In this document: positions 1,630-8,733 of the stretch, piece after piece | How positions within the stretch are numbered: position 1 is the stretch's first letter | Layout of the letters: every line of letters starts with the position of its first letter | Source of the DNA: Felis catus | Taxonomy: Eukaryota | Assembly (NCBI RefSeq): GCF_018350175.1 | Contig: NC_058368.1 | Span: forward strand, 4,278,001 to 4,342,000 | DNA: 64,000 bases | Direction of reading: 5' to 3' | Made by a program: the position numbers and the translations under genes | Notes under the pieces: model-generated | Told to the model about the DNA's origin: nothing | The model's database searches: none | The model's input: only the letters and a program-made list of their open reading frames with translations

Positions 1630-2203
1630 GTAACTCGGTATTTTTAATCCGCGTGATTCTATATCCCCTTGTGCAAATATGCGCTCTACTGATTTGCCAG
1701 TTTTCCCGCGAAACTATGAGAGATCATTGAAAGCAGGTTATTCGTGACATTCTGGACATCAGAGAGGGACAAATCTTTGGCAAGAGATAAGTAAGTCTCT
1801 CAAGGCTACTGATGCCCAGTGCAGTGTCCTTCACACGTTATGCTCCATTCGTTTCATTTTTTTCTCCTGTCCGTGATCTGTGACACTTCCGTCATCTGTA
1901 AGTAACGGTTAGCATGTCGTTTACCCATAGAATTTTAGAATAGCCATCAAGAAACTCAGTTAAGAGCAGGAAACCATATTTTAGACATCGGGTTAAGAAT
2001 AACTATCTTGATTAGAAGTAGGTATGAAACTTCAGTGTTAAAGTAAGTTCATTGAAGCAAGTTTATGGCAAAGGAAACACTAGAATGCTGACGTCATAGG
2101 TTGCTGTTCCATCCAGAAAACTTAAAAGCAGAGGCAGCGTATTGCCCGGTAGTGGTGTTTTTTCCTCCCTATAGAGTTACAGACCTTTTGAATGTGTGTT
2201 CAG

Positions 2204-2609
2204 ACACGCAGGTCCGGTGGGGGAGACCATGCCCACTTTCTTCGGGTCCCTTTCAAGGTCCATCTGTGGCGAGTTTTCAGATGCCTGGCCTCTGATGCAG
2301 AGCCCCGTCTGTGGTGACGACATCTCTTTTTGTGACTCTGATCCTGAACTCGCTGGAGAAGACGTTCATCCTCTCGGTCCGGAAAACCACTGCTCGTTCT
2401 CCTCGGATTCAGACAGTCGTCAGGATTCGGTTGGTGGAGCTGTTCCAATTCAAGCTCGTCCTGAAAACTTGACAGATGCCGCTGATTTCTCTAGACCTCA
2501 CAGCTCACCGACGGAATCAGTGCTAACTCAGGCTACACTGCCTGCCAGGAGGCAGCTGCATCAGGAGAGCGGCGACATGATCGGCCTGACCGCTCAGACG
2601 TCCCTCCAG
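2204..2609 (+). CDS. TNFRSF19: TNFRSF19 penultimate coding exon, 406 nt (HAGPVGETMPTFFGSLSRSICGEFSDAWPLMQ...AQTSLQ)
   Basis: Acceptor gtgttcag|A, donor CAG|gtaagg at 2609/2610; lies in ORF 2196..2708. Contains the conserved TROY motif PTFFGSL..SICGEFSDAWPLMQ. Confidence 0.96.
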
Positions 2610-2708
2610 GTAAGGCAGCGGCTGGTCTCGGTAAGGACGTGGCATCGACTCGTGCCAGGCCCGAGGGATGGGATTCCTCTCACCGTAGAACGTGGGGGGA
2701 CCCGATGA
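2610..2708 (+). CDS. TNFRSF19: TNFRSF19 unspliced (intron read-through) isoform C-terminus VRQRLVSVRTWHRLVPGPRDGIPLTVERGGTR*
   Basis: Frame stays open through the donor to TGA at 2706-2708. It starts VRQRL like the recalled human long isoform (VRQRLGSL*). Confidence 0.55.
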   Translation, partial: VRQRLVSVRTWHRLVPGPRDGIPLTVERGGTR

Positions 2709-5700
2709 GAAGGTTTTCCCATCTTCCGGAACTTCTTGTTCTAGTCTGTTTGGAGAATGTGTTTTAAATTGAATTTCAGGAGTCTTTTCTTGGTTTAACT
2801 AACAGCTACCCTCTAAGGCCATACTGAGCAGCTGTGTTCTCTTACTCTTCATAAATCCAGCTACTTACACGGCACCCCCTAGCTCCATTCCTGGCTGAGA
2901 GAGAGGAGTCCGTCTCGGAACGTCTTGTAAACCACCCCTCACCTTTATTTTCCCTGTGATGCTTTACTCCCAATACTGAAATGCACTTCATTCACCGTGG
3001 GGTTGATGGGAACTTGGATCTCTCAGAGTTTCTCTCGTTCACTGTTGTGTTCGAGATTGCTCTGCTTCGATCGGTTTCGTTGGAAATTGCCGGTTGTGAT
3101 CTGGGTCCAAATATTGCCTACGAACCTTCTAGAACCAAGGGTTTAAAATCAGGGTTGGGGGGAGGTGGTGACTGCAGGGAGATGGGCCTTTCAGGCCTGC
3201 TGCAAGGCTGGAGGCAGAGAAGCATCACGGATCCCCGGGCACCACCTCTGCTCTCCCCTTCGGCGAGGATGTCGCCTTTCCCCAGCGTGATTTGAGGTCT
3301 GCAAACATTTCCCTAATGTGAAAGCACATACACTGTTGGAATAGTCTTCCGGAAAAATGATGCCCGCCTTCAAAAAAAAAGGGCAGAATCACAGCACCAG
3401 CAAGGCTCCCAGGCCCCACAAGGCCCCGCCTGCACACGCAGCCTGTGGGAAAAATGCTCTGGCACGTGGGTGCACTCTCGACGCGTGCCTCTGTTTCCCA
3501 CAAGGTGATGTGTCCTTGTCTAATTACGTTAGACACAGCCTGAAGTCAAAGGGTGAATTAGAGATGTGTTCAAGAACAGCATGTAGGTTATATGTTGATC
3601 TAAATCTGCAATACTTTTTTTCTTCTGAACTACCAAGAAAATTCTATAGAGAATTTACAGGGAATTCTACGCAGGAAACACTTGTTGGCTTTGGAGAAAA
3701 ACAAGGTGGTTTCTCTCCAAATAAAGGAAATACAGAAGAGATAAGGGAAGAAAAAGCAAACCAATTAGGCATTTAAAATGTAAAATACATGCTCTGTAGC
3801 TGAGGAAGGTGTTTACTGACCTTGTTCTTTTGAGCTGTCCCATCATTTTTATGACTTCCGTGATAATAATAAGAAAAGACTTAAGAGTTAGCCAAGTTGC
3901 ATAGGTCCCAAGAATGGACCCCATGGCTCAAAACCTTCGGGGCTGAGCACACCCAGCTGCCCGAAGGAGGCAACAGGTCCCGAGAGCAGGTGACAGAGGC
4001 AGAGAACAGCTTGGAGAAAGAGACCCCGCCCCTTTAGCAACTAACCCCAACTTCCCAGTCGGATGCCCTTTCCAAGTACTCTAAAATAAAAGTCTTGGGA
4101 TTCTTAAAATATTAAAATGACAAGATGTCCAAGTTTCTTGTGTATCAGGTCAATTGGTTTTGATCATGAACTTGCTTGTGTTACCTTCACAAATGTCTGC
4201 TACCTTTCCCCACATATCTGTTGCCAGGGGCGAGATGGAGTAGCTGGAATTGCGCTCCCGGTGACTACCGCGGGTTTTCCAGAGCATTGCCAGCCAATAA
4301 AAGTACTGCTCAGTTTATTGTGTAGCTCACGCCCAATTTTGTGATGTAAATTCGAAGACTAAGGAGTGAAGCATCTTGATGCCGAGTGGTGTGAGAACCA
4401 AAGCATTCTCTACCTTTTTTCTGATTATATTGTTGGTGAGGTGGGGGGATGCTGGTAAGCATTATTATTACAGCTACGTGAATGTAAAATGGGTTAGTGT
4501 AGAAGATTGGTGTAGATAATGGCACTGACTTCTTTTCAAAGACCATTGTCAAGGTAATGGTGATCTACATAAAGATACTTTCAACCCAAATTATTATGAA
4601 AAGAAAGTTATAATTACGTATAAAATGAATGGGAAAATGTTACATTCCGTTCAGGTTGCACAACGTAATTTAGTGATGACAGGTTTTTATTAGCTTTCCA
4701 AGATGTGTCCCCTCACTGGATAATTTGGTAAATATAAGCGAGACATTCTGAACTCAAGAAAGGAATTGTTAAAACGTGAATCATTTCAGTTTTCTCCCTG
4801 TAACCAAAACCAACAACAATATTTTGAGCCCATTTAAGACATCACCTTTTCCAAGTTCTGGAAAGCACTTTATGTTTGGTTGCACTTACCGAACGTGTGA
4901 TGCTTAGTGAGTGAACCTTAATCTTCAAAAGCAACCAGGAGGGAGACACAACTGCGCGTCTTTGGGAGATTAAGTCTCTTAGTTTCAAGGGTCGACAAAG
5001 AATGTAGCACAACTAGTTCTGTTTTTGTTCAACCCATTAGATTCCAGAAGGCAATTCGGATTTCCTCTTACCAGGCTGATTCTCCAAGGTAGGGACATAC
5101 TTACTTCACATAAAGAATTTTCGTTCAGCAGCTCGGTATTATGAACCAGAGGACTTCCGGCTCCTTGAGTTTGTGTTTAGTCAGCTTGACTGAACACCTT
5201 GAGCCCGTGGGCCCATTCGTAATCCAGCAAAGCGCGGCATTCCTGTTTGGAAAACACGTAAGGACAGCTGTAGCCATTATAGCCTCCCCCCTTTTAGTGA
5301 TTTATTTCTATATCTTTTCAATGGAACTTGAAATTCTTATCTAGGAATTCACTCATATTTTCAGCTTTTTAGCCTCAATTCTCCCCTTTGCTTCAGCTGT
5401 ATTGAGATGTAATTGACACTTACCATTGTGGACGTTAAGACGTGCGACGTGACCATTGGATGCACGTCTATACCACAGAATGCACAGTGGCACTTTTGTC
5501 TTTGCTTGGTGTGAGGCTCGGATTGCTAAGGCATGATGCATTTGTTTCCAAAAACTGTACTTTTACACAGTAGCTTTCTTGTGGGTGGTTTAAGACCACC
5601 CAGAATCTGATGATGATAGTTACGGTGCAGGATAAAGTAAATAGGTGTGAGAACCTTCTTGAGTCTGAATGACTCAATTCTAATCAAATTTTCCCAAACA

Positions 5701-6848
5701 CACCTCCCCAGAAGAGGAACAGACTAAGATATTTGGGACATCAGTTGCTAGGATACTTGGGAGCATGAGGCCAGGCTGCTTACCTACAGGAAAAGCTTTT
5801 TTGGGGGTGATGTTTTTAGCCATCATTGGAAATGTCAACATAAAATAATAGGAGGAGTGGTTAAAAAAAAAAAAAAAAGATATGACCTAGGATCTGGCTG
5901 CTCAATCTTTTAAACTTTTTTTTTTCCGTATTGGCAAAATGACTAACATTTGTCTCCCACAATAGTGTTAATGTGGTTCTTACTGTCATATTAACTGATA
6001 GATATATTTGATGAAACGATCTCATATTATTAAGAGTTCTTTCAGAAGTTTCTATATGTAGGTACTGTCCTTCAACTCAGGGGAAAAAATGTTCTCCTGT
6101 AAACGTACCTGATAGGTCACCAATGCCAAAATAGTGGTAAATAAGTGAATGAAAGGTTACAGCATAAAAGGAAGGTTTTATCCACTGCAGTAAAGTGCAG
6201 TTGGCCGATCCCTCCAGAAGTCAGGTCGCTGCCCTTCTGTGATAAGGGACAGATCTAAGGGTGCCACTTTGCTGAGGATATCTACCCTGGAAAGAGTGTG
6301 AGCCTTCCAGGAAGATCATTAGGAGTCCTTTCTAAACCATCTCTAAACTTTCTCCAGTGGTTTAGCAGAAGTTTTAAATGCAAAGAATAAGAATGTCACT
6401 ATTCACTAATCATCTTTGTTCTTTTAAAGAAGGGACTAACAGATCCTAACATCTTTACCTACAAATGCTTTACAAGAACACAACACAGAAACAAACTTTA
6501 AATATTTGAATGGGGTTGGAAATCAGCCAATGAATCACATGTTAATACATGTTGTTGGCTGTGGGTCACGTGATCGCCTCTGCAGTGTTGTTTGGAAATG
6601 CTGAGGGGCTGTGAGTTGTTATAAAATCTTTACTGTATTCTCAGAATACGTGGATACCCGGATATTCAGACACCATGAATGAGCTGCTTGTCTATATGTT
6701 ATTAAGTTCATTGTGTACTCCTAGTTAAAAGTCACGTACAATAATTTTGAATGATTCCAGTTTAGCAGCTTTCGTTCGTGAGGTTGTTTTTCAAGCTCTC
6801 CTTCTGTTGCTGTTTTGGGAAGCTTAAAGGACTTGCTTCTTTCTGCAG

Positions 6849-6908
6849 GAGAAGAATACGGATGGAACCCAGCAGGCACTTACTCCTCCGCTTGGGCTGA
6901 TGGACTGA
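6849..6908 (+). CDS. TNFRSF19: Candidate TNFRSF19 terminal coding segment via acceptor at 6847-6848 (EKNTDGTQQALTPPLGLMD*)
   Basis: cttgcttctttctgcag|GAG AAG ... GAC TGA, phase 0, compatible with the 2609 donor. Usage is inferred, not shown. Confidence 0.45.
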   Translation, partial: EKNTDGTQQALTPPLGLMD

Positions 6909-8733
6909 GCACTGTCTGGACCTTGCCTGGCTTCTGGGGGGAAAGAAAATAAATCTGAACCAAACTGATGGCGTTTTAAGCCTTTCAACCAGTTGCTTCT
7001 GAGCCAGACCAGCTGTAAGCTGAAACGTCAAGGAATAACAAGCAAAGACTCCAGGCACTCACGATACTTTGCATCTTTCCTGAACAAGAAGCTTCTATGC
7101 CACAAGCGAGACTTCAAAGACTGATGGGTTGAGTTTGCAGCCTACGAGATTATGAGCATGTAACAAGAAACAAGTGCATTCATGCGTATTTGCATGGCGA
7201 ATGTGGTCTTACCAGACTGAAGACCCAGGGTGTAAGTTTTCGCTGACGTTTGCTCTCCAGAAATAATTTCATATAGCCGCTGATCCTGTTAAAAGTCAAC
7301 GGCAGATTGGTTTCCTTAGTTTTTATGGAGAGTGGTTCCAAACTGAGCACGCGTATTTGAGGAAGCTCACGTTTCCGTCGTCTGATCAGGAGGTAAGAAC
7401 GGACTTGCACGCCACCTGCCTACATCATGGGTCTGTTAGGTGAAGTGAACTGGCCCGACTAGGAATCAGAGGAGAGCAAGTCTTTGCTGGAGTCGACACG
7501 AGTAACCTCGGCCACTGGTCTCAGGAGCCCTGCTAGACCCAGTATCGAGAGGGCCCGGGCTGGGAACGTGGTCTTTTCACTGATTACCCGCCTTGCAAAC
7601 CACTGAGCACATCTATCCTAGAGACTTGTGTGCACTGATTAACATACTTCTGCGGAAATCAGTCGATCGGAAGCATTTGTTACTTCTGTCCCTGTGACTG
7701 GGCTCAAAAGATCCAGAAGCTGTCCTTTACACAAAAGTGGTATTTGTAAAGATAATGTTCTTTTTTTTTTCCTTCCCATCCTCCTCACCCGCCAGTGTCC
7801 TGCCTCTGACAACCACCAGTCTGTTCTCTGCACCTGTGAGTTGGGTTGTGGTTTTGTGTGTGTTTCGCATCCTGTCTGACACGAAGGGCTTTAGACACTA
7901 CAGGTCAGGTTCCCCTGCCGCCAAGATGGAACACCGTGCGGGTGGTCCCATGAGACCGCACTACCTAGTAGAACAAAAAGAAAAGGCACAATTTGTAGAC
8001 GGCATCTAGGTGAACAGTTGGTGATTCCCCTTAGGCAGTCGGGCCAAGTACGACGGTGCGCCCTCTGACCGTGTACCTTTCGTCCCCACCGTGATCTCCT
8101 ATCTCAGCCACTGAGGCTGCGTGTAAGTGCTTCATTCTGGCACCCCATCCCTCACCTGCTTGGTAGTTACCAGAACTCTCTCTACAGCCAAGATAGAAAC
8201 GAACCCAGTTCAGTCACGAACCAGGGGAGGGCTCGTTTGCTGTTACTCTTCGTGCCCTGGGGAGGAATTACCAGAAGAGGATTGATTTGTTTCCAACTTG
8301 AACCTGCATGATCAGCTCTGGCCTTGGTCTTTTCACTGATTACCGTTGGCTGTGTCACACTGGCACTTAAGAGAGAAACAGAACATCATTGTGTTTGAGT
8401 GCACTAAAATTCTTCTGTTTCACAACTGCCCCAACCAAAGCGGTGTCTTTTACCTAACGCTTAAACTGCATTAAAAAAAAAAAAAATCTTAGGACATACT
8501 TATCTTCTCACTTCTTGAAACCGTGTTTCCACTCTTTGCAAGGTATTTAGGAAAATCTAATGACTCCTCTTCCTCGTGGCTGGGCTAGGTTATCCAGCTG
8601 CAGTTTTAGGTTCAAATGTGTGTGGATTCTCGTGACCTCGGTTCCTTTATCCAAAATAGGAAATTGGAGTCGTCTCAGGGTAACCCATAGCCTTCTGTGT
8701 CTGTTTAATACCCAGCCATAACTGATTGGCTTT

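Follow-up and report, generated by a model that had tools for sequence, protein, structure and literature searches.

What becomes of the C-terminus of a receptor when the usual 3′ splice site of its last intron reads GG in place of AG? This question is raised by the 3′ part of the Felis catus TNFRSF19 gene (TROY/TAJ), which lies on the + strand of the window, i.e. the 64,000-nucleotide stretch of DNA that was analysed (C1:4278001-4342000 in the cat assembly). That the gene is the TNFRSF19 orthologue follows from the identity of its encoded exons. Specifically, the translation of the exon at 2204–2609 is 100% identical to the RefSeq Felis catus TNFRSF19 isoforms, and it gave 68 matches among 541 candidates, nearly all of them named TNFRSF19; the models were placed on the window by tblastn. 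The region of the terminal exon is single copy. The ectodomain exons are located upstream of the window, and full-length models carry PF00020 (TNFR cysteine-rich domain) according to the precomputed Pfam annotation. When the 50 longest stop-to-stop frames past position 7000 and two TNFRSF19 frames were scanned against Pfam, no match exceeded a curated cut-off. The window also contains a (GT)n/(CA)n microsatellite at about 740–950, and CVCVCV and THTHTH runs are seen in the ORF translations.

Two coding exons of the window precede the splice site in question. The first spans 1527–1629, as placed by tblastn of felid models and by the sequence, and ends with …GPVHLIPSLCCDEACSIDRVTLGCRVHSKTTLQE followed by the first two bases of an Arg codon; it is bordered by an acceptor AG at 1525–1526 and a donor GT at 1630–1631. 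The second, at 2204–2609 (acceptor AG 2202–2203), is the last large coding exon. It encodes the cytoplasmic region up to ...LTAQTSLQ, matches the cat isoforms at 100% identity and closes with ...ACG TCC CTC CAG | GTAAGG at 2609/2610, the junction being in phase 0. An earlier note, made from the sequence alone, had claimed that the terminal acceptor reads GG and had given the human end as ...SLQEA. Both statements are correct: g6817 and g6818 stand directly 5′ of GAAGCTTAA (6819–6827), after the pyrimidine-rich ctctccttctgttgctgtttt, and primate models do end in SLQEA. Judging by the EA ends of non-felids, the GG at 6817–6818 presumably stands in place of the AG of other mammals. The GAA GCT TAA (Glu-Ala-stop) at 6819–6827 would then be a relic of the ancestral coding end, to go by the non-felid proteins, and in the felid models it is intronic.

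The acceptor that had been claimed 30 nt downstream is present as AG 6847–6848 in the context ttgcttctttctgcAG|GAG (tgCAG|GAG), with 13 pyrimidines in the 20 upstream positions, and it is the acceptor used by felid models in the tblastn placement. The frame behind it is open to the extent that had been described, since 6849–6908 translates to EKNTDGTQQALTPPLGLMD*, with a TGA stop at 6906–6908 and with GAG as the first codon, which completes SLQE. Both acceptor positions are in frame because the donor is in phase 0 and the spacing is 30 nt. An in-frame AG with 20 open codons behind it could well arise by chance. We take the predicted tail as real because public gene models use exactly the 2609→6849 junction. 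Two AGs nearer the old site could compete with 6847–6848. Use of AG 6821–6822 (gaAG|C) would give SLQ-LKGLASFC..., and use of AG 6828–6829 (aaAG|G) would give SLQ-DLLLSAGEEYGW..., with Asp (D) as the first residue. Among the AGs at or past the old site, 6847–6848 (gcAG|G), which has its own pyrimidine run and is in frame, is the only one that restores Glu and the only one that joins a consensus context with Glu after SLQ. The sequence CAG GAG AAG at 6846–6854 (+) holds three in-frame AGs in tandem (6847–6848, 6850–6851 and 6853–6854); splicing at the second or the third would lose Glu, or Glu and Lys, and hence the SLQE motif.

The predicted end ...SLQ-EKNTDGTQQALTPPLGLMD turned out to be the exact end of the RefSeq cat isoforms X4, X5, X6 and X7, and tblastn maps residues LQEKNTDGTQQALTPPLGLMD of the cat models to 6843–6905. 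The tail had been called new. It does differ from the EA end, but it is already in public databases as the end of predicted isoforms, so no new isoform is described here. Our felid sample consists of the 29 models listed, i.e. 4 cluster representatives and 25 members, and takes in 15 of the 52 members that make up the largest cluster. The sources of these models are RefSeq XP records, UniProt entries for Lynx and a submitted Lynx pardinus annotation. Several sources mean some independence of pipeline; models of related species are nevertheless not independent observations, because pipelines pass models on by homology. The EKN(T/P)DG tail is found in 24 of the 29 felid models listed, from 13 species and both felid subfamilies. 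It ends models of Felis catus, Acinonyx jubatus, Lynx canadensis, Lynx pardinus, Prionailurus bengalensis, Panthera leo, P. pardus, P. tigris, P. onca, Neofelis nebulosa, Herpailurus yagouaroundi, Puma concolor and, with a variant end, Leopardus geoffroyi.

The alternative that survives best is that the EKNT tail is minor or exists in models only. The transcripts would then mostly end at 5041–5079, read through the donor or use the AGs at 6821–6822 or 6828–6829, and the functional felid receptor would mostly be made without SLQE. There are indeed other ends to choose from. The alternative terminal coding segment at 5041–5079 (IPEGNSDFLLPG and a stop, with acceptor AG 5039–5040), placed by felid models and tblastn, ends 5 of the 29 felid models listed with IPEGNSDFLLP(G/S). 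Cat isoform X2 uses it, and so do models of Lynx, Prionailurus, Panthera pardus and P. uncia. The resulting SLQI lacks the Glu that the TRAF2-type motif needs. The exon may be carnivore-wide, because a grey seal model has a counterpart, IPKGNSDFLLTC. Read-through of the donor GTAAGG (2610–2615) would lead into the frame VRQRLVSVRTWHRLVPGPRDGIPLTVERGGTR and a stop, which by comparison with primate models is the counterpart of the primate 423-aa form. This frame adds 32 residues in the cat and is used by none of the felid models listed. The read-through end is just SLQVRQ-stop in P0006, P0096 and P0097 (canid or other caniform ORFs or models). The length of the read-through tail is therefore not conserved, as the primate end has 11 residues and that of the cat frame 32.

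A transcript-derived tail was sought in two protein searches. The exon query against proteins of 77–245 aa gave 29 matches among 42 candidates, with the felid tail in none of them, and a second query, made of the C-terminal 50 residues of the cat model, gave one match among two candidates when run against proteins of 30–182 aa. That match, P0094, was also the sole cat-like match of the exon query. P0094 is a read-through ORF on a metagenome contig (ENA, 848 nt), identical to the cat exon 2204–2609 save for 21 residues missing in frame, and it continues past the donor as …SLQVRQRLVSV…. The in-frame gap may stem from a polymorphism, from misassembly or from internal splicing. The absence of a transcript-derived ORF with the EKN tail from both searches and the two AGs between the old and the new acceptor agree with a minor EKNT form. 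P0094 would agree with it as well, but it may simply be genomic DNA. What speaks against a minor EKNT form is that acceptor use at 6849 is common to the 24 models from several annotation sources, that the tails expected from acceptor use at 6823 or 6830 are absent from the felid models listed, and that 6847–6848 has the best context, CAG|G with a pyrimidine run of its own. We consider it rather unlikely that most felid transcripts end elsewhere.

It is far less probable that the GG at 6817–6818 reflects a mistake in the assembly or a rare allele carried by the reference cat, with the EA form being what cats normally make. None of the 29 felid models listed has the EA end, and in 13 species, from separate assemblies, the tail is the downstream one. 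In addition, a run search returned 24 runs (11 marked 'DNA?', 3 unmarked, 6 RNA and 4 raw RNA). The 14 DNA or unmarked runs, which are from the same organism, hold 0.94–0.99 of the sampled words of 2190–7100, although this measure is not specific to base 6817.

How the tail is distributed across mammals was seen from the C-terminal ends of 68 cluster representatives. Three of the 68 have the EKN tail and all three are felid; an EKN-type tail is found in none of the 65 others. A two-residue end after ...Q (EA, ES or EV) is present in 34 of the 68, all non-felid, and these include meerkat (a feliform), badger, raccoon dog, rhinoceros, horse relatives, primates, elephant, rabbit and rodents. Donor read-through (VRQ...) ends nine representatives, among them the 423-residue macaque form, and the IPEGNS-type exon ends two (Lynx and grey seal). 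Four cetartiodactyl representatives end in ...ERTCFFLQ (three with EAERTCFFLQ and one, deer, with GDERTCFFLQ), and the remaining 16 have other ends. Tails of the ERTCFFLQ type, from whale, hippopotamus and deer, are seen in P0026, P0039, P0047, P0051 and P0104. The model of the striped hyena, Hyaena hyaena (P0009, 415 aa), stops at ...SLQ without EA or any other tail, unlike that of the meerkat. By protein sequence, EA is the end that mammals widely share, and the EKN tail does not extend beyond the cat family.

The downstream CAG itself is older than its use in cats. The last seven residues of the cetartiodactyl end, RTCFFLQ, are the translation of cat 6828–6848 in the same frame, and therefore the downstream CAG is old 3′UTR sequence that predates the felid acceptor use. 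Least probable is the alternative that mammals ancestrally and commonly spliced at the downstream acceptor, which would make the felid state nothing special. It could draw on the age of this homologous stretch, but cetartiodactyls code for the stretch because they lost the stop behind EA; they keep EA and still use the upstream acceptor. Besides, the 65 other representatives include 34 with a two-residue end and none with an EKN-type tail. Non-felid mammals, including the meerkat and several caniforms, end in EA, and the downstream site is therefore not the one that mammals commonly use. A scan of metagenome contigs with the 20-mer 6829–6848 gave two loci with unrelated flanks, which are chance matches. 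The proposal of a lineage-specific shift that turned 3′UTR into coding sequence and kept SLQE is thus supported by the gene models and their species distribution, the lineage being the cat family and not the domestic cat alone.

A 3′ splice site that has lost its AG is normally no longer used, and splicing moves to the next suitable AG. We propose that the ancestral AG at the 3′ splice site of the last TNFRSF19 intron was lost in felids, leaving the GG of the cat; outgroups would accordingly be expected to carry AG at the position of this GG, to judge from their protein ends. The old site, which in most mammals would join ...SLQ to Glu-Ala-stop, would have been replaced by the strong CAG|G 30 nt downstream, so that splicing from the donor after 2609 would have moved, in frame, into the former 3′UTR. 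In this way the two-residue EA end would have become the 19-residue tail, and the first codon, GAG, would have rebuilt S-L-Q-E across the junction, no longer beside the free C-terminus. The shift would have taken place on the felid stem, later than the split from mongooses and earlier than the split between big and small cats. An origin on the felid stem is indicated by the presence of the EKN tail in both Pantherinae and Felinae. What is observed is the state of the cat sequence, the tails with which the gene models end and the species in which these tails occur; from this we infer the ancestral AG and the actual use of the junction in RNA. As a whole, an acceptor shift on the felid stem, with the motif kept and the tail nearly neutral, is in our opinion a likely explanation.

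The TRAF2 consensus is (P/S/A/T)x(Q/E)E, and most known TRAF2 motifs are internal. As had been predicted, the felid models keep SLQE, with S-L-Q from 2601–2609 and Glu from GAG 6849–6851, and the resulting sequence fits the TRAF2-type consensus near the C-terminus. The EKN form is the only annotated felid form with SLQE, because read-through gives SLQV and the 5041 form gives SLQI. TRAF2 binding may therefore be retained in the EKN form. A review describes SLQE as a TRAF2 site that is present in the 417-residue human form only (PMC13613319). Isoform 1 has a length of 423 aa there, which matches the macaque read-through model, and it is described as having no TRAF binding sequence, yet both human isoforms, isoform 1 included, activate an NF-kB reporter (PMC13613319). 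Moreover, human TROY with a C-terminal 3xHA tag has been used in NF-kB reporter cell lines (PMC6140379). By analogy, neither the internal motifs elsewhere nor the tagged TROY construct suggests that the extension abolishes signalling.

The tail itself is expected to be nearly neutral. Other felids differ from the cat at 0–2 of the 19 tail residues and at 4–9 of the 135 residues of the preceding exon, which are similar proportions, and this protein comparison gives no sign of special selection or conservation on the tail. T4P and M18T are common to Pantherinae, and P13S is found in Prionailurus. A different end is seen in Leopardus geoffroyi, where the models P0077, P0080 and P0088 have the cat tail up to ...TPPL and then VWTLHGFWGERK. 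This end matches the +2 frame of the cat (…STVWTLPGFWGERK), with its cat counterpart at about 6890–6952, and it stops at a TAA that overlaps the AATAAA at 6948–6953. The switch of frame implies a frame-shifting deletion in Leopardus (length not divisible by three), through which the felid stop and the four codons before it disappeared. The distal tail is thus dispensable in at least one lineage. We regard it as doubtful that the felid tail is not neutral, i.e. that an internal SLQE together with the added Thr-Pro-Pro-Leu could alter the recruitment of TRAF proteins or of a partner of the free C-terminus, and that the downstream acceptor may have been fixed as the only nearby AG that restores Glu. 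If this is true, the cat family would depart from other mammals in how TROY signals in skin, hair follicle and nervous system.

The proposed acceptor shift can be compared with the ends of TNFRSF19 known from other mammals. In isoform 2 of human and other primates (417 aa, 'TNFRSF19.2') the same donor after ...SLQ is joined to the terminal exon region, with Glu as the first residue and SLQE formed, as in felids. It ends with EA, two residues past the junction in the primate models, whereas in the felid form the acceptor lies 30 nt downstream and 19 residues follow it. In isoform 1 of human and other primates (423 aa, 'TNFRSF19.1') the C-terminus is likewise set at this donor, but by read-through (…SLQVRQRLGSL in the macaque model), which places Val where the motif needs Glu, unlike in the felid EKN form. 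The cetartiodactyl EAERTCFFLQ (whale and hippopotamus; GDERTCFFLQ in deer) shares with the felid tail that former 3′UTR at this locus was made coding, by a different route. Cetartiodactyls kept the old acceptor but lost the stop behind EA, and their protein ends right after the CAG; in felids the acceptor would have moved and the stretch up to the CAG would be spliced out. In cryptic 3′ splice-site activation, an AG is lost and the next usable downstream AG with a pyrimidine run is taken. The felid case resembles it in the loss of AG, the use of a downstream AG and the keeping of the frame, and differs in that the change would be fixed across a family of species and is not a disease allele.

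The event is thus of an ordinary and well-known kind, a downstream AG activated after the loss of the authentic one. Judged by titles and abstracts of the literature on TNFRSF19 in Felis catus or feline, no paper deals with the felid TNFRSF19 C-terminus; the match for Felis catus is on kitten diet. If our explanation holds, the locus gives a clean and datable example of how a single base change in a splice site can give a signalling receptor a different end throughout a mammal family, and the change falls on the very residues that form the TRAF2-type motif of TNFRSF19. Work on cat TNFRSF19, or comparative work on felids, should not assume an ending like that of the human 417-residue form. As to the 3′ end of the transcript, the AATAAA at 6948–6953, 40 nt past the felid stop, is by its motif a candidate polyadenylation signal, and further AATAAA-type signals follow at 8470, 9760 and 10081.
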